A stretch of 64,000 nucleotides of DNA from a virus: positions 52,131 through 116,130 of the IMG/VR virus record IMGVR_UViG_3300032893_000010, one strand, 5' to 3'. Shown here piece by piece: positions 9,661-55,729 of the stretch. Under the pieces are notes generated by a model, which worked only from the letters and a program-made list of their open reading frames with translations, made no database searches and was not told where the DNA came from. Position 1 is the first letter of the stretch. The number at the start of each line of letters is the position of its first letter. A program made the position numbers and the translations under genes.

Positions 9661-10000
9661 TCCGGTAAGATTGGGTGTTACGATAGGAACAGTCGTTACC
9701 CTTATATCTTCAGTGTTCATGTTCATTTTTCACAAGCAGTTGCCATCAGAAGTAGTGGCATTCCTGCCAGCAATCGTAGCTTTCGTAGGTCACTATCTTG
9801 GCGTAAACTTTGCCATGACAAGAGCGGCAAAGCAGCTTATAGAAGAAGATGCTAACTAAAGAAATAGTAGAAAAAGCATTAGAGGAATTGTGGAATCCTA
9901 CTCCACCTTGGCCCGGCAGACCATGTAAACATGTGGTGCTTGGGCCATGTCCTTTATGTAACGAAGAATATCGGGAAAATAAAAAATAAAGGAGCATTAA

Positions 10001-45793: not shown

Positions 45794-45865
45794 GGTTCTT
45801 TAGTGAAACTGGAATCACGATTGGTTGAAGCCCAGTAGTTGTCAGTTCGAGCCTGGCGGGAACCA
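45794..45865 (+). tRNA. tRNA-Phe(GAA)
   Basis: cloverleaf. Confidence 0.85.
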
Positions 45866-46521
45866 CTAAAGATTACCAGAACAGAAGGCTACTGGTTCGA
45901 ATCCAGTACTTCCCACGAAAGCATCTTAAAAGGAGGATAAGATGGATATAATTCGTGACATAGATTCAGCAGAAAACGGTAAAGATGCTGAGAAGAAGAG
46001 AAAGTTCTGGGCATCTAAGATAACAAATCTAGGAGCAGAGAAGATAGCCGGTGCCAGCATCAGGCGTGTTAATAAGAATGACTGGCGTGTTGACCTGTTC
46101 CTGTACGTAGACAGGAATTCGTCAGAATTCAAGGACTTCATGAGAAGGTTCAGATGACGGCTATAGGTGGCTACGTAAAACGTAAGGATAGGGTAAAACA
46201 GGAAGTATATGACAGGTTTTATGACGGGACGCATTGTCCTAATTGCGGGGCTAACTACAAATACGTAGCAATGTGGCCGCATATATGCAAGGAAATCCTT
46301 TACCAGTCTATGCCTATACTTAATTTTGTGCCGTTTGAAGTTGATAATAAGGAGTAGACGTGTCTGCAAACAACCATTGCTCTGCGTGTTCAGGATCAGG
46401 CAAGGTTGACTGTCCTTTCTGCAAAAAAGAGGATGCTTCATGTGTGACGCTAAAGGTGAGGCAGCTTGCCCTGACTGTAATGGCACTGGTAAAAGATAAC
46501 AGTATTCAGGGCCGTAATAGA

Positions 46522-48108: not shown

Positions 48109-49188
48109 ATGGCTTTATATAGTCTTGAGCAAGAGCCTCAGAACCATGTTACGTTCGTTTTTGATGAATCGTACAGCATGTATCCCCATTCTGTGGCTCT
48201 TGTCAAGCTTTTTGACAACGAAGTTCGCTATCTGGCTAAGAGAAGCCTGGAAATGAACCAGGAAACTCGTGTTTCCGTGTATCTTTTCAGCAATCCTGGC
48301 ACTGCTAGATGCGTTTTGTACGACTCTGACGTGCTCAGAGCGCAAGAATCCTTCACTTTGAAGGGAAAATACAGCCCTGAGGGCAATACAGCCCTGTGTG
48401 ATGCTGCTGTTCTTGCTGTCGAAGACCTGAAAATGGTTCCTACTAAGTACGGACAGCACTCCCACTGGCTTATGATCTTTACTGATGGCATAGAGAACAG
48501 CAGTTCTTTCAATAACAGGCGGAAAATCAAGACTTTGATTCCGTCTCTGACCGATGAGTGGACTGTTTCTATCTTCGTCCCAGATCAGATTGCTAAGAAG
48601 CAGGTTACCGACTGGGGTTTCCCCAAAGATAATGTAGCTATCTGGGATACGACCTCTGAAAGAGGCATGGATGAGGTTGTAAACACAGTACGTAAGGCTT
48701 CTGAATCGTATTTCACGCTGAGGTCTACCGGCGCTAAGGGCTCTAAGAGCCTATTCTCACTGAATTCTCTCACCCGAGCTCAGATCAGGAGTGAGCTTAA
48801 GCCTCTCCCGTATGGTTATTACCAGATTTTGCAGCATCCTAAGGATGTGAAGACGACTATCTGGATCAGGGACCTGGTTAATAACAAGCTTCCCCTGACA
48901 TATAAGAGAGGGTATGGCTACTATGAACTGGTAAAGAATGAGCATATCAAGGGTCATAAGGGTGTTATCATCGAGCAGGGCGGACAGTTCTATGCTGGTA
49001 ACGCAAGGGATCTTCTAGGGCTGCCGGATGATGAGGTAAAGGTCGGCCCAGATCACTCCACGGAGTATAAGATCTTCGTGCAGAGTGATAGCCACAACAG
49101 GAATATCATTCCTGGCCAGCGTGTCTTGTACCTGACAGGTAATGGGTTGACTCACTGGCCGCAATTTCCGCTGAAAATTTCTGAATAA
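48109..49188 (+). CDS. vWA-domain protein
   Basis: MIDAS DESYSM, GNTALCDA, FTDGIENSS. Confidence 0.82.
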   Translation: MALYSLEQEPQNHVTFVFDESYSMYPHSVALVKLFDNEVRYLAKRSLEMNQETRVSVYLFSNPGTARCVLYDSDVLRAQESFTLKGKYSPEGNTALCDAAVLAVEDLKMVPTKYGQHSHWLMIFTDGIENSSSFNNRRKIKTLIPSLTDEWTVSIFVPDQIAKKQVTDWGFPKDNVAIWDTTSERGMDEVVNTVRKASESYFTLRSTGAKGSKSLFSLNSLTRAQIRSELKPLPYGYYQILQHPKDVKTTIWIRDLVNNKLPLTYKRGYGYYELVKNEHIKGHKGVIIEQGGQFYAGNARDLLGLPDDEVKVGPDHSTEYKIFVQSDSHNRNIIPGQRVLYLTGNGLTHWPQFPLKISE

Positions 49189-49193
49189 AATCC

Positions 49194-49222
49194 TTGACAT
49201 CATGTCCCGAACGTGGTATCAT
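49194..49222 (+). promoter_or_regulatory. promoter for the tRNA/Y RNA/Ro60 operon
   Basis: TTGACA-N17-TATCAT with upstream AAATTTCTGAAT. Confidence 0.7.
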
Positions 49223-49363: not shown

Positions 49364-49451
49364 TCCAGGTGTGAAGAATACGGTTGCTTCAAACAAACAG
49401 TTAGAAAAACTGTTAAGTTACCAGGACACCGTATTCGATTGATTCTCTGGG
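49364..49451 (+). ncRNA. Y-RNA-like 1 (stem-loop cargo)
   Basis: CCAGGTG..GAATACGGT/ACCGTATTC..GATTCTCTGG. Confidence 0.7.
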
Positions 49452-49497
49452 TCTAGCTAGTGGTCTACCCACCCATATCATATCTAACTATCAAGTT

Positions 49498-49857
49498 ATG
49501 ATATACTTAGATATGGCAAAAAGCAAGGAAGCTCAATCTAAAGCGTCTCGTAAACATTACGAGAACAACCGTCAGGCAATGATAGCTCGTGCAATGAAGT
49601 TTAAAGACGAGTTAAAGAAAAGCATAAGACAGTACATACAAGATCTGAAATCCTCAACACCTTGCAAGGACTGTGAGGTTCAGTATCCATATTATGTTAT
49701 GCATTTCGACCATTTACCTGAGTTTGAAAAAAAGTTTGATATTGGGAACTCTTCTAAGTGGACAAGCATGAAGAAGGTTCTTGATGAGATGGAAAAATGT
49801 GAGATAGTTTGCGCTAACTGTCACGCAGAAAGAACACATCGACGCGCGGTGGTGTAA
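49498..49857 (+). CDS. HNH endonuclease
   Basis: CKDC, FDH, CEIVCANCH. Confidence 0.88.
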   Translation: MIYLDMAKSKEAQSKASRKHYENNRQAMIARAMKFKDELKKSIRQYIQDLKSSTPCKDCEVQYPYYVMHFDHLPEFEKKFDIGNSSKWTSMKKVLDEMEKCEIVCANCHAERTHRRAVV

Positions 49858-49914
49858 AGGGAACACGCTGGTCTCATAAGCCAGATAATGCCAGTTCGAG
49901 TCTGGTCTGCGCTA
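49843..49914 (+). tRNA. tRNA-Met(CAT), 1:72 mismatch (initiator-like)
   Basis: cloverleaf; overlaps the HNH stop. Confidence 0.85.
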
Positions 49915-49950
49915 CGAACTAGGATTGATTTATCTAGGATAAAGTTTAAT

Positions 49951-50074
49951 GCCAGGTGCATTGAGTACAGATACTTCATTAGCAGAGCCAATATTTGCTA
50001 TAGCTCAAGATAAGAGCGCCGACTTCATACGTCGGAGGTTATGACATTTCTCTGTTCTCGCCCGATTCTCTGGC
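49951..50074 (+). ncRNA. Y-RNA-like 2 (tRNA-CAT opened at T loop)
   Basis: scaffold plus TAGCAGA-GCCA-ATA-TTTGCTA, D arm, CCGAC-TTCATAC-GTCGG. Confidence 0.75.
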
Positions 50075-50314
50075 GCTAATTTTAACTTAGGAGGAAGAAA
50101 GTGTACGTAACAGGTAAAGAACTTATATCTGAACTTCAGAGATTACCTGAAGAAGCCCAGAATCTGGCAGTTTACTTCAAGTGCAGAGAGAATAATCTTG
50201 AGGGAATGCTGGAAGTGTTTGATTTGAAAGTCGTTCCTGCTGGATACGGGCAGGTTATTCTTCTTCTTCCTGCTTAATTAAGTTTGTCCATACTGTACCT
50301 CCTTCCGTATGGAT

Positions 50315-50468
50315 ATCCCTGGTGTGCTTGTCCAGAGTTACTTCAATAATGGTAAAACATACATTTGAAACATGTAAATTGTTAGTTCGAATCTAACCAC
50401 GGGCACCAGATCATGCCCGTGAAGTTTATAACTTTGAAAAACACCTCTGACCGTTTATTCTCAGGGAT
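50315..50468 (+). ncRNA. Y-RNA-like 3 (tRNA-GAA opened at D loop)
   Basis: scaffold plus TACAT-TTGAAAC-ATGTA, T arm, CACGGGC-ACCA..GCCCGTG. Confidence 0.75.
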
Positions 50469-50529
50469 TGTCATTTTATTTGTTTTACCTCTGCGCCGAA
50501 CATCTTTGAATGCTCAGGGCAGAGTTCAT

Positions 50530-50601
50530 GGGCCTGTGGCTGAATGGCTTAGGCAGATGATTGCAACCCATCTTTATCCGGTTCAAATCCGGCATGGCCC
50601 T
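50530..50601 (+). tRNA. tRNA-Cys(GCA)
   Basis: cloverleaf, U73. Confidence 0.85.
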
Positions 50602-50605
50602 CTGT

Positions 50606-50748
50606 AAATCCAGGTGCAATTGCGAGAGTTACTTCATACAAATGATCAAATCGGAAAAGATAATTCTCTGTAAAAGAATAAATTGCAGGTTCAAGTCCTG
50701 CTTTGTATAGCAAAGCTAATAAACTCTTGCTTCCTATTCTCTGGATTT
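50606..50748 (+). ncRNA. Y-RNA-like 4 (linear tRNA-GTA embedded)
   Basis: scaffold around a cloverleaf at 50636-50709. Confidence 0.75.
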
Positions 50749-50763
50749 TCTGAAATTTAACAT

Positions 50764-50897
50764 AGCCTGGTGCGAGGACTTCAGCTACTTCACTTTTTAA
50801 TCTGCGTGCGATGGTTCGAATCCATTCCCCATGGCGGGTAGCTCAGCGGAAGAGCAGCAGAATACGGTAAAAGCTGGTGTCAGTTAACCCTCAGGCT
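50764..50897 (+). ncRNA. Y-RNA-like 5 (YrlA-type topology)
   Basis: T arm, closed acceptor, D arm, TCTGC/GCAGA stem. Confidence 0.8.
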
Positions 50898-50910
50898 GCG
50901 ACAAAACTTA

Positions 50911-51072
50911 ATAGCCAGGTGCAAAGAGACTCGGTTACTTCTAAATATGACATGCGGAGTCCGAGGGCAGGTTCGATTCCTGAAGCCCGACCAATCAACG
51001 GGTGGTAGCTCACAGTGGGAGAGCGCGAAAAAAATACGAAATTACACCGCGTTTCGAATATTCTCTGGCTAT
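50911..51072 (+). ncRNA. Y-RNA-like 6 (YrlA-type topology)
   Basis: CAGG-TTCGATT-CCTG, GCCCG-ACCA..CGGGT, D arm GCTC/GAGC. Confidence 0.78.
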
Positions 51073-51090
51073 TTCATCATGGGAGGTCAA

Positions 51091-51201
51091 ATGGCAGCTA
51101 AACTATGCGGGTGTACTTGTCCCTCATGCCAGGAGATTAACTTCTTCGGCAGAGGCAGTCACTGCGGCAGCAAGAAATGCACGAGTACTATGGAAAAATA
51201 A
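51091..51201 (+). CDS. 36-aa Cys-rich peptide
   Basis: GGAGG RBS; CGCTCPSC..HC..C. Confidence 0.5.
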   Translation: MAAKLCGCTCPSCQEINFFGRGSHCGSKKCTSTMEK

Positions 51202-51210
51202 TTTAATATT

Positions 51211-51309
51211 ACCTGGTGCGAAAGAAACAGTTACTTCATGGTTCGATCCCACGTATTTCTGTTAGAAATAGCTAAAGGCAGCTAACACTGTTTCACATTA
51301 TTCTCAGGT
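51211..51309 (+). ncRNA. Y-RNA-like 7 (minimal T/acceptor/D module)
   Basis: TGG-TTCGATC-CCA, TATTTCT/AGAAATA, TAGCT/AGCTA. Confidence 0.72.
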
Positions 51310-51325
51310 TCAGTACGTATTACCC

Positions 51326-51420
51326 AATGCCCAGGTGCGTTGACAACGGTTACTTCAGCAATTGTCTATCAAACAATAGTAGCTAAAAATTATGCCGTTG
51401 TCTCTGATTCTCTGGGCATT
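51326..51420 (+). ncRNA. Y-RNA-like 8 (lone anticodon stem-loop)
   Basis: GACAACGGT/GCCGTTGTC, ATTGT-CTATCAA-ACAAT. Confidence 0.72.
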
Positions 51421-51461: not shown

Positions 51462-53141
51462 ATGGCACGACAGAACACAGTACGTCTGACTTCAAGGACA
51501 ACTCCCCTGAAGTCAGAGTACTCATCAACAGCTAGAACAGCTACAGGTGGCCAGGGTTTCGTTTCTGATTCTAACTCTGAGCTGTTCAGGCTCGGAGTAA
51601 ACGGCTTGTTAGGTAAGGAAGAAACTTACCATGAAAGCGGTAAGTCCAGGGACAGCAGGTTCACTGATCTTGTTTCTGAGCTTGCTGTAAATGATCCTGG
51701 CTGGACAGCAGGATTTCTTACATGGCTTCGTGGTCCGGAGGCTAATATCAGGACAGCATCTCTTATTGGTGCTGCTGATTATGTGCATGCAAGACTAGCT
51801 GCTGGTGTTAAGGAATCCGGTAAGTCTAAGGGTTTCAACAGGACAGTAGTCGATGGTGTATGCCAGAGAGCTGATGAGCCTGGTGAACTTGCAAGCATTT
51901 ATCTTTCTGAATACGGTAAGCTTCCTAAGCCAGTGAAGAGAGGTCTGGGGGATGCTGCTTCTAGGCTGTGGAATCCTTATGCCACGATGAAGTACGATAC
52001 TGCTTCTCATGGCCTGAGGTTTGCTGATGTTATGAACCTTTCCCATTTCACGCTTGCTGACAATGAACTAGCAGCTCATATTATCAACCGCAGGTACGGT
52101 AATGATGAGGATTGGGCTTCTCTTCCTGAGATGGTGAAGAACAATATTTCCCTGAGGAAGGAAGTTGCCAAGGGCAACTACGACATTCTGACCAATTCCA
52201 GGGTTCTCAAGTCTGCTGGCATGACATGGGAAGACGCTTTGTCTCTTGCCGGAAATCATGTTCCTAAGGACAAGCTGTGGAACGCTCTTATCCTTGGCGG
52301 TCAGGTTCCTATCTTCGCTGCACTGAGAAACCTCAGGAATTTCACTGAGGCTGGGATCTCTCAGCAGGCCAAGGAATATATTCATGATCAGCTAACTAAT
52401 GAAATAATAATCGCTAAGTCGAGAATCTTGCCATTCAGATTCCTGTCAGCGCTTGAGGCTCAGGATTCATATGAGTGGTACAGTGACCTTGAGACCGCTG
52501 TTCAGATTGCCACTAGGAACGTTCCAAGGCTTGAAGGCAAGACTATCGTCCTTGTTGATACTTCAGGTTCAATGGATTCTCCGGTGAGCAATAAGTCCAA
52601 GATGACACGTTCTGGTCTTGCTGCTTTCTTCGGCGGCGCTTTTGCGGCGCATAACTCAGATGATGTAGCTTTGTACATTTATGCTGACGGTGTTAAGAGA
52701 ATTCCTGTGAAGAAGGGACATTCTGTGCTGAAGCTGGCTGAGGAAATGCATCGCAGGACTGGTGAGGTCGGGCATGGTACTCAGACAGGAAGGGCCATGA
52801 GGCAGGCTTGTTCTGAGAATCCGGATGCTAAGAGGCTTATCGACAATACTGACATGCAGTCTTTTGCTCATGGTTCAAGAGCACATGTTTTAAGTTACAG
52901 CGGCTTTGGTTTCAGTTCATACAACAGTAATGGTTATTCAAGGCAAGGTACTGCTGCTGACGTTCCTGATAGTGTGTTCTTGTATTCTAACGACCTGTCA
53001 GGATATAAGACAGCTAACGTCCAGACTGGTGATGGTTCCCGTACTCATCAGCTATCAGGTATGATGGGTGATTCTACTTACAAGTGGATGAAGGCTATCG
53101 AAGCTGGCACGAATGCTGACTGGCCATGGCTGAAGAAGTAA
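51462..53141 (+). CDS. Ro60/TROVE-domain RNA-binding protein (Rsr homolog)
   Basis: QRADEPGE, KYD, MTWE, ALRNLRNF, SRILPFRF, vWA VDTSGSM. Confidence 0.9.
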   Translation: MARQNTVRLTSRTTPLKSEYSSTARTATGGQGFVSDSNSELFRLGVNGLLGKEETYHESGKSRDSRFTDLVSELAVNDPGWTAGFLTWLRGPEANIRTASLIGAADYVHARLAAGVKESGKSKGFNRTVVDGVCQRADEPGELASIYLSEYGKLPKPVKRGLGDAASRLWNPYATMKYDTASHGLRFADVMNLSHFTLADNELAAHIINRRYGNDEDWASLPEMVKNNISLRKEVAKGNYDILTNSRVLKSAGMTWEDALSLAGNHVPKDKLWNALILGGQVPIFAALRNLRNFTEAGISQQAKEYIHDQLTNEIIIAKSRILPFRFLSALEAQDSYEWYSDLETAVQIATRNVPRLEGKTIVLVDTSGSMDSPVSNKSKMTRSGLAAFFGGAFAAHNSDDVALYIYADGVKRIPVKKGHSVLKLAEEMHRRTGEVGHGTQTGRAMRQACSENPDAKRLIDNTDMQSFAHGSRAHVLSYSGFGFSSYNSNGYSRQGTAADVPDSVFLYSNDLSGYKTANVQTGDGSRTHQLSGMMGDSTYKWMKAIEAGTNADWPWLKK

Positions 53142-55220: not shown

Positions 55221-55294
55221 GGGAGCATAGCTCAGTTGGTTAGAGCACTACCCTGTCAAGGTAGGGGTCACGGGTTCAAGTCCCGTTGTTCTCG
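55221..55294 (+). tRNA. tRNA-Asp(GTC)
   Basis: cloverleaf. Confidence 0.92.
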
Positions 55295-55324
55295 CTTTTG
55301 ATTCGAACCGTGGTAAACTTAAGT

Positions 55325-55729
55325 ATGGCAACATTACATGACGATATACTTAAACTGCGGGACGATGGTTTTACATACAACCAGATAGTAAACAACCTAG
55401 GTTGCTCAAAAGGAACAGTCTCTTACTACCTAGGTAAGGACCAGAAGCTAAAGACTTTAATACGTACTAGAAATCGACGGAATTTTATTTCTAGATATAT
55501 CAAAGAGTTAAAAGATAACAAATGCTGTATGGATTGCGGTCAGCAATTTCCTCATTTCATCCTGGACTTTGACCACAGGCCGGGGGAAGAGAAACTATTT
55601 TGTATAAGTGCAGCAAGAAGTAATAGAACAAAAGAAGAGATAGACGCAGAAGTTGCTAAGTGCGATTTAGTTTGTGCTAATTGTCACAGATTTAGAACGT
55701 GGAACAGGTCAATAAAATCGCATTATTAA
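55325..55729 (+). CDS. HTH-HNH endonuclease
   Basis: N-terminal HTH (YNQI..LGCSKGTVSYY), CMDC, FDH, CDLVCANCH. Confidence 0.88.
   Translation: MATLHDDILKLRDDGFTYNQIVNNLGCSKGTVSYYLGKDQKLKTLIRTRNRRNFISRYIKELKDNKCCMDCGQQFPHFILDFDHRPGEEKLFCISAARSNRTKEEIDAEVAKCDLVCANCHRFRTWNRSIKSHY

Follow-up and report, generated by a model that had tools for sequence, protein, structure and literature searches.

A phage Y RNA beside Ro60 whose cargo is probably a complete tRNA mimic permuted at the D loop

The window analysed here, the final 64 kb (64,000 nucleotides) of a 116,130-bp IMG/VR phage record (IMGVR_UViG_3300032893_000010), contains at positions 50315-50468 an RNA element in which the parts of a tRNA stand in an unusual order, about 1 kb upstream of a gene for Ro60. 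This raises the question of what such an RNA is: a tRNA held by Ro60 in two pieces, the precursor of a conventional tRNA, an ordinary Y RNA of the YrlA type, or a chance arrangement. Our answer is that 50315-50468 is probably a Y RNA of the phage Ro60, with a complete D-loop-permuted tRNA mimic as its cargo. The tRNA elements are present, they are conserved in five phages with covariation, and the RNA is linked to Ro60. The parts of this RNA and the Ro60 gene lie on the plus strand.

Anatomy of the RNA and its linkage to Ro60

The RNA begins and ends with the two strands of a scaffold. At the 5' end, the outer helix strand ATCCCTG (50315-50321) pairs with 50462-50468, both by direct reading and in minimum free energy (MFE) and constrained folds. 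It overlaps the GGTGYR block GGTGTGCTT (50321-50329), likely the strand contacted by Ro60 to judge from the recurrence of this motif in the surrounding array and in other Ro60 loci, and is followed by the inner helix strand GTCCAGAG (50330-50337, C50333 bulged), which pairs with CTCTGAC (50445-50451) by the same reading and folds. The 3' strand of the scaffold (50445-50468) comprises CTCTGAC, an internal loop CGTTTATTCT and the outer helix strand CAGGGAT, again by reading and folds. Both helices form in the folds, each strand is about 25 nt long, and the GGTG...WACTTC signature is common to other members of the array, in which the scaffold also carries non-tRNA cargoes.

Between these strands lies a module composed of tRNA parts. 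The scaffold-module junction (50338-50346), a conserved TTACTTC plus AA whose ACTTC is invariant in five of five members, leads into the D loop TAATGGTA (50347-50354; G18 and G19 are 50351-50352), where GGTA is likewise invariant, and into the D-stem 3' strand AAAC (50355-50358), which pairs in trans with GTTT at 50424-50427. Next come A26 (50359, by direct reading), an anticodon arm TACAT-TTGAAAC-ATGTA (50360-50376, anticodon GAA at 50367-50369), a variable loop AATT (50377-50380, as placed by the de-permuted cloverleaf) and a T arm GTTAG-TTCGAAT-CTAAC (50381-50397), the last supported by Rfam, ARAGORN and covariation. The acceptor stem is closed into a hairpin (50398-50421) in which the 3' strand CACGGGC (50398-50404) continues through ACCA (50405-50408) and a linker GATCAT (50409-50414) into the 5' strand GCCCGTG (50415-50421). 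Nucleotides 8 and 9 (AA, 50422-50423) and the D-stem 5' strand GTTT (50424-50427), assigned by reading and covariation, complete the module. A connector (50428-50444), in which TTGAA (50434-50438) can pair with TTCAA (50342-50346) by direct reading and in the constrained fold, returns to the scaffold. The spacing is exactly that of a tRNA, with 2 nt past the acceptor strand, 1 nt before the anticodon hairpin and a variable loop of 4-5 nt.

When 50415-50427 is joined to 50347-50408, ARAGORN calls the resulting 75-mer tRNA-Phe(gaa), and all 21 stem pairs are Watson-Crick (7/7, 4/4, 5/5 and 5/5). In its native order 50315-50468 receives no tRNA call from ARAGORN, and the Rfam tRNA model (RF00005) matches positions 8-63 only, at 24.4 bits, below the threshold of 29. 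Across the window ARAGORN makes no tmRNA call and finds 29 tRNA genes, comprising 28 ordinary ones and one (50636-50709) within a Y scaffold. In the real loci, a strict descriptor of the wiring picked out the window and three orthologues, plus two ordinary YrlAs that fit it loosely; it found nothing in five shuffles of 2.27 Mb on both strands, so the match to this wiring goes beyond chance. An earlier note on this DNA had listed these elements and read them as a complete cloverleaf permuted at the D loop. Each element is where that note placed it, the de-permutation that it proposed gives the tRNA call above, and the permuted cloverleaf is borne out as a conserved architecture with covariation, in a Y scaffold beside Ro60. 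Its ACCA is real, and its observation that the ordinary tRNA genes of the window lack an encoded CCA is correct (0/28).

The presumed protein partner starts about 1 kb 3' of the RNA on the same strand. We identify the 559-aa ORF at 51462-53141 as Ro60 because it contains TROVE (Pfam, E = 2.5e-17) and VWA (VWA_2, E = 1e-6) domains; it has 2502 homologues. The 1.5 kb 5' of this gene hold a run of elements that have in common a GGTGYR...(A/T)ACTTC 5' block and, complementary to it, a 3' strand. There are 7 plus-strand copies of the pattern GGTG-N9-18-WACTTC in this region (49955-51356); the pattern gives 12 matches across the whole window against 2 expected, and most of the roughly 160 related loci have 2-10 copies directly 5' of Ro60. 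The array as a whole (49364-51420) comprises about eight Y-like RNAs with a single common scaffold and differing tRNA-derived cargoes. Two neighbours (50781-50880 and 50951-51056) match the Rfam YrlA model (RF02553) weakly, at 23.6 and 15.7 bits against a gathering score of 69. The common scaffold, the Ro60 gene and these neighbouring YrlA matches together indicate that 50315-50468 is one member of a Y-RNA array beside Ro60. At 49194-49222 there is a good sigma-70-like promoter, TTGACA-17-TATCAT (11/12, with TG); within the array, no terminator was convincing.

Conservation and covariation in related phages

Related loci, 80 from IMG/VR and 80 from metagenomes, were chosen through relatives of Ro60; among the closest of these relatives (P0003-P0010, 55-70% identity) the loci covered are L082 and L083. 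A single-sequence covariance model (R1) recovered orthologues of the RNA in L082 (Ro60 70% identical; 96.6 bits) and in L002 and L003 (Ro60 45-46% identical), all three at the same syntenic site, directly before tRNA-Cys. A second model (R2), built from the window and these three loci, scores its four members at 87-103 bits and everything else in the Ro60 loci, including ordinary YrlAs and tRNAs, at no more than 38 bits. Pattern scans of IMG/VR yielded a fifth member, L321:2316-2398, which scores 44.1 bits with R2 and has a TROVE ORF downstream; over about 2.9 Mb of fetched loci, R2 returned no non-member above 41 bits. In an annotated phage collection, megablast and blastn with the array gave no match, and tblastn with Ro60 gave only distant phage Ro60s (at most 37.5% identity). 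Exact-motif and single-protein scans of IMG/VR also gave no match. A loose IMG/VR pattern returned, among the matches listed, mostly ordinary tRNAs, and three candidate members (L340, L342 and L343) were rejected as normal tRNAs whose D stem reads CTTC/GAAG. In all five phages the wiring runs from the Y scaffold into the D loop and D 3' strand, through the anticodon arm, the T arm and the closed acceptor to the D 5' strand, and back to the Y scaffold.

In a five-row, model-guided alignment of the window, L082, L002, L003 and L321, standard pairs occupy 97.1% of cells, and both sides have changed at 17 of the 21 pairs. None of 500 shuffles reaches any of these measures, and slid registers are 29-41% paired. 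Compensatory change affects 5/5 pairs of the anticodon helix, 4/5 of the T helix and 7/7 of the acceptor helix. Within the trans D helix, G10-C25 and U11-A24 are kept, 12-23 covaries (U-A or G-C) and 13-22 is lost in three members. In addition to ACTTC and GGTA, the five members share U33, A37, T54-T55-C56, A58 and G53-C61, and a pair compatible with A15/U48 is kept in every one. An apparent tertiary covariation between positions 8 and 14 (A8/U14 in the window and L082 versus U8/A14 in L002 and L003) was dropped, as L321 (A8, with A or C at 14) misfits.

An un-permuted counterpart is found at L252:9543-9681, identical in L322:3283-3421 and L323:6261-6399. It starts with GGGGAGA-AA-GTTT, a 64-nt insert and GAAGGTA-AAAC-G, and proceeds through an anticodon arm with an 8-nt loop (TTTGAAAT), ATTT and a T arm to TCTCCCC-GCCA. 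The insert, placed between D-stem nucleotide 13 and the D loop with junction sequences that match those of the window, consists of a scaffold 3' strand (...GAAAAAACACTCT...), a GTAA cap and a scaffold 5' strand (...GAAGAGTTACTTC). Without these 64 nt, the sequence is recognised by ARAGORN as a tRNA whose anticodon has 4 bases. The element's neighbours are the genes of a tRNA array in which CCA is encoded, and no TROVE gene was found on the L252, L322 and L323 fragments, which are 11-15% complete. Judged by its sequence, the L252 element is a circular permutation of the wiring in the window, with its ends at the acceptor and its scaffold closed. As its acceptor is naturally open, it makes it likelier that a free acceptor end matters, and that RNase P opens those permuted forms that encode a discriminator plus CCA (NCCA). 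A short free-standing Y-like RNA follows the L252 element at about 9686-9760.

The anticodon and the acceptor end are much less uniform. The anticodon loops of the five members read TTGAAAC, CTGAAAA, CTGTAAA, CTATCAA and TTCCAAA, giving anticodons GAA, GAA, GTA, ATC and CCA, with GAA confined to the two closest relatives (the window and L082). The acceptor loops are ACCAGATCAT, GCCAAACAT, GCAA, CTCTTAAA and ACCAT. NCCA follows the acceptor 3' strand in three of the five (ACCA in the window, GCCA in its closest orthologue L082, ACCA in L321), and in L002 and L003 the acceptor is closed by GCAA or CTCTTAAA, without CCA. Listed in the order of the anticodons, the discriminators are thus A, G, none, none and A, so that the same GAA goes with A in the window and with G in L082. 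Where NCCA is present, in three members, the acceptor stem has 7 bp and G1-C72, preceded by U(-1); in L002 and L003 these positions are C1-G72 and A(-1).

NCCA is not restricted to these RNAs. In the Ro60 loci it opens the loop in 17 of 130 distinct hairpins made of a T arm and a 7-bp acceptor, against about 2 expected. Encoded CCA is therefore a minority feature that recurs among phage YrlA-like RNAs and is not unique here, and many phage Y RNAs may have a free CCA end once RNase P has cut them. NCCA is linked, modestly, to G1-C72 (13/18 versus 46/114, p = 0.02), and across 132 acceptor hairpins its link to U(-1) is not significant (p = 0.29). The NCCA acceptor loops in Ro60 loci L002-L161 are mostly ACCA, frequently ending in CAT. 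Ordinary YrlA-like RNAs (for example L026:3530-3570, L060:880-925 and L002:3555-3580) have, 5' of the T arm, a 'V' hairpin with a 7-nt loop of two recurring kinds, one CTNNTAA, like an anticodon loop with U36-A37-A38, and the other (A/C)TTTGGA or ATTGGGA.

Several observations bear on the link to tRNA-Phe. The T loop, CACGGGC and ACCA are shared by cellular tRNAs for Leu, Arg and Lys from many phyla, never by those for Phe, and the acceptor stem was accordingly rejected as a clue to host or origin, the many phyla giving no host signal and no tRNA-Phe link. The phage also has an ordinary tRNA-Phe(GAA) gene at 45794-45866, which differs from the module in all four stems. G44, U45 and U59, which belong to the identity set of Escherichia coli PheRS, are absent from the module, and the A discriminator with a CCA anticodon in L321 is presumably wrong for bacteria under the rules of tRNA identity. 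The earlier note had stated that every tRNA-Phe element is present, which is too strong in view of these missing identity bases. Its further suggestion of a chargeable tRNA-Phe finds no support as a function of the group, given that anticodons vary, NCCA is present in three of five, the discriminator is not tied to the anticodon and the phage has its own tRNA-Phe gene.

Proposed mechanism, known systems and rival explanations

We propose that the 5' and 3' ends of the RNA form a Ro60-type scaffold helix to which Ro60 would bind, and that scaffold and cloverleaf part between tRNA positions 13 and 14, where the D loop begins. As the exit lies at 13/14, the module keeps a 5-bp/7-nt anticodon arm, the T arm, a GG-containing D loop and a 7-bp acceptor, and it may adopt the tRNA L-shape through an elbow between G18G19 and the T loop. 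A loop starting with ACCA would close the acceptor stem of the module. In the NCCA members, host RNase P would cut 5' of G50415, between 50414 and 50415, a site placed by analogy with the YrlA of Mycobacterium smegmatis (PMC4201824), and the 3' tail would be trimmed to CCA. We lean, by a little, towards this cutting and trimming taking place in the window, L082 and L321, which would yield a two-piece RNP with a free tRNA-like acceptor end. For the role of the module, our tentative suggestion, which we hold with less than even confidence, is a tRNA look-alike held by Ro60 as bait or docking site for host proteins that recognise tRNAs and not a decoder in translation; these might be enzymes that process, modify or repair tRNAs, or defence nucleases directed at tRNAs. 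The module would then be one of about eight different tRNA-derived cargoes in the array. It is unlikely that in the NCCA members the Ro60-bound two-piece RNA, opened by RNase P, is recognised by an aminoacyl-tRNA synthetase (PheRS here). If this were true, the outcome would be an aminoacylated Y RNA, or a bait that titrates the synthetase or a tRNA-directed defence enzyme in an anticodon-specific manner.

The closest known relatives are the YrlAs, which have a T arm, a closed acceptor stem and a D arm, with the scaffold at the anticodon stem and a variable V hairpin (Chen et al. 2014, PMC4201824). Wang et al. 2018 (10.1101/312249) describe YrlAs as circularly permuted tRNA look-alikes without an anticodon loop or a free CCA end, and liken them to algal permuted tRNA genes. 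Like YrlA (RF02553), the candidate is linked to Ro60, its ends would form a Ro60-binding stem, and it has a T arm, a GG D loop and a loop-closed acceptor. The YrlA scaffold, however, continues the anticodon stem and leaves no anticodon loop, whereas the candidate is entered at 13/14 of the D loop, has its D stem in trans with no local D hairpin, keeps a complete anticodon arm and is not matched by RF02553. RNase P cuts the M. smegmatis YrlA, whose acceptor stem has 7 bp, both in vivo and in vitro; the 3' end of this RNA is nibbled and ends in CCA, and its halves remain bound to Ro60 after the cut; its aminoacylation is raised in that paper as speculation only (PMC4201824). RNase P opening, a CCA end and Ro60-bound halves are the processing that we propose for the candidate. 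The two differ in that CA is added after the cut in M. smegmatis and the full ACCA is encoded here, and in that the M. smegmatis RNA lacks an anticodon loop and has its permutation point in the anticodon stem.

Other systems are more distant. The model of Yrn1 of Deinococcus radiodurans includes a T arm and what may be an anticodon arm, with a 5-bp stem (Chen et al. 2014, PMC4201824), but the RNA does not share the present permutation, has a 6-nt loop and lacks both a full D arm and a closed acceptor hairpin. The permuted tRNA genes of Cyanidioschyzon merolae and relatives (Soma et al. 2007, cited in 10.1101/312249) also place the 3' half first and have a linker opened by RNase P or RNase Z. 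There, cutting at a bulge-helix-bulge and ligation give a normal tRNA, whereas the candidate ends in a conserved Ro60 scaffold, belongs to a bacterial host and does not conserve its anticodon. Two-piece tmRNA, to which the earlier note had compared the RNA, shares the path from a permuted gene to a two-piece RNA with a tRNA-like acceptor end, but the candidate has no mRNA-like tag, and tmRNA has no anticodon arm and has SmpB, not Ro60, as its partner. M. smegmatis YrlA is the closer precedent for RNase P opening. Neither a D-loop entry point nor a Y RNA with a complete anticodon arm is described in the papers that could be searched; tRNA-mimicking YrlA-type Y RNAs are known, and the D-loop permutation point is probably new.

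It should be noted that several observations count against our interpretation of 50315-50468. The split D stem has only 3-4 A/U-rich pairs (3 in the more distant relatives), and an alternative, local complement adjoining the 3' strand of the scaffold is available to the D 5' strand in the window, L082, L002 and L252, with none in L003; in the window this rival partner of GTTT is AAAC at 50439-50442. Among the four orthologues folded, the unconstrained MFE structure is 2.0-4.2 kcal/mol better than the fold constrained to the cloverleaf. Three members have A at position 8, where U is nearly universal. The scaffold block GGTGTGCTT departs from the published GNCGAAN0-1G motif, and RF02553 gives no match to 50315-50468 at E values up to 10. 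The phage genome has no Pfam match to RtcB (PF01139), RNA_ligase (PF09414) or a CCA-adding enzyme, nothing in it points to a specific partner, and a bait or decoy role is something that we infer only. The local pairings that compete with the cloverleaf differ among the four folded orthologues, and any processing or partner would, in view of the missing RtcB, PF09414 and CCA-adding enzyme matches, have to be supplied by the host.

A rival view is that the RNA is an ordinary YrlA, in which 50360-50376 is the 'V' stem-loop, GTTT with AAAC at 50439-50442 is a degenerate D arm and the upstream GGTAAAAC is a mere linker. A less conserved V stem-loop upstream of the T arm has been described (Chen 2014, PMC4201824), local complements exist in the window, L082, L002 and L252, and the MFE favours local pairings. 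Since a local partner of the D 5' strand exists, the covariation at 12-23, taken alone, would also be compatible with a local hairpin. The loops of the local pairings contain no GG, however, so only the trans D pairing can build the tRNA elbow; every member keeps the upstream GGTA and its complement unchanged and at the exact spacing of a tRNA, a local complement is missing from L003, and Rfam YrlA does not match the candidate. We therefore consider this view decidedly improbable. That the resemblance is due to chance, or that the element is a dead, rearranged tRNA gene left by homing endonucleases, is almost certainly wrong: HNH endonuclease ORFs do occur in the array, but the architecture is found in five phages with compensatory changes at 17 of 21 pairs and no shuffle matches, in a conserved scaffold beside Ro60.

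The remaining alternatives keep the module closer to translation. A genuine two-piece tRNA-Phe, produced by RNase P cutting and trimming, charged by PheRS while tethered to Ro60 and perhaps used in translation, would explain GAA with U33 and A37, A73-CCA, the 7-bp acceptor, G1-C72 and U(-1), as well as the retention of GAA and NCCA in the nearest orthologue L082 and the naturally free GCCA end of L252, and aminoacylation has been raised as a possibility for M. smegmatis YrlA (Chen 2014, PMC4201824). Yet the anticodon changes from GAA through GTA and ATC to CCA, ATC is not a normal bacterial anticodon, the L252 loop has 8 nt, L002 and L003 lack CCA, L082 combines the same GAA with a G discriminator, position 8 is A instead of U, the acceptor stem fits Leu, Arg and Lys tRNAs, and the phage tRNA-Phe(GAA) differs in four stems. 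In addition, a scaffold of about 70 nt plus the Ro60 ring at the D-loop core would probably clash with EF-Tu or the ribosome. The varying anticodon and discriminator, the two members without CCA, the 8-nt loop, A8, the Leu/Arg-type acceptor and the phage's own tRNA-Phe thus disfavour a decoding tRNA-Phe, and we regard this reading as quite unlikely. Less probable again is a precursor of a conventional tRNA, in which the scaffold of a permuted gene is excised, the D loop religated and the acceptor opened by RNase P. The order with the 3' half first and a linker across the acceptor ends is that of the algal genes (10.1101/312249), L252 resembles a tRNA gene whose D loop is interrupted by an intron-like insert, and Salmonella Ro60 and YrlA lie in an RtcB ligase operon (PMC7790460). 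Here the termini are instead the Ro60 scaffold common to all eight array members and not a bulge-helix-bulge, no splicing endonuclease is known in bacteria (10.1101/312249), the phage has no match to RtcB (PF01139) or PF09414, and varying, partly non-natural anticodons together with two members without CCA disfavour a decoding product; we consider this explanation very improbable.

The surrounding array and biological meaning

The other members of the array differ in what they carry. The member at 49951-50074 combines an acceptor hairpin whose loop is GCCA with a D arm and a CAT anticodon arm, and the scaffold replaces its T arm. The member at 50606-50748 surrounds a complete un-permuted tRNA(GTA) of class I shape (63.4 bits). 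Three YrlA-type copies occupy 50764-51309, of which the copy at 50911-51070 has ACCA in its acceptor loop, and the member at 51326-51420 has small hairpins only. A conserved block, CCATACTGTACCTCCT, is located 10-25 nt 5' of the Y RNA in the window (50288-50303), L082 (about 2469-2484) and L003 (about 2871-2886), and is not present in L002; it lies partly within a hairpin (TCCATAC...GTATGGA in the window) and includes ACCTCCT, like the 16S rRNA 3' end. A small ORF of 58 aa (50101-50277) with a strong AGGAGG ribosome-binding site lies between the second and third Y-like RNAs, the third being 50315-50468. This ORF is kept in L082 (about 2299-2457), is absent from L003 and has no Pfam match, and at its 3' end there is a terminator-like hairpin with a T-rich tail (50236-50254).

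HNH endonuclease ORFs (49498-49857 and 55286-55729; PHROG 3106, E ~1e-23) are scattered in the tRNA and Y-RNA array. A 359-aa VWA-domain protein (48109-49188; PHROG 26613, E = 9e-76) is encoded directly 5' of the Y array; it is the second VWA protein here, next to the Ro60 with its own VWA domain. Among the neighbouring ORFs we found no clue to RNA repair or to a tRNA enzyme.

The described bacterial and phage Y RNAs lack an anticodon loop, and most of them lack a free CCA end. The RNA at 50315-50468 would indicate that a Ro60 scaffold can be grafted into the D loop while the anticodon arm and the acceptor end stay intact, and together with L252 it suggests that the same object occurs in both circular permutations, with its ends at the scaffold or at the acceptor. 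For annotation, the consequence is that the Rfam tRNA model, the Rfam YrlA model and ARAGORN all miss this RNA. It would provide a handle on whether Ro60 RNPs engage proteins that read the anticodon or the CCA end, such as synthetases, modification enzymes, anticodon nucleases or toxins that act on the acceptor end, and it may help to explain the presence of Ro60 in tRNA-rich phages.

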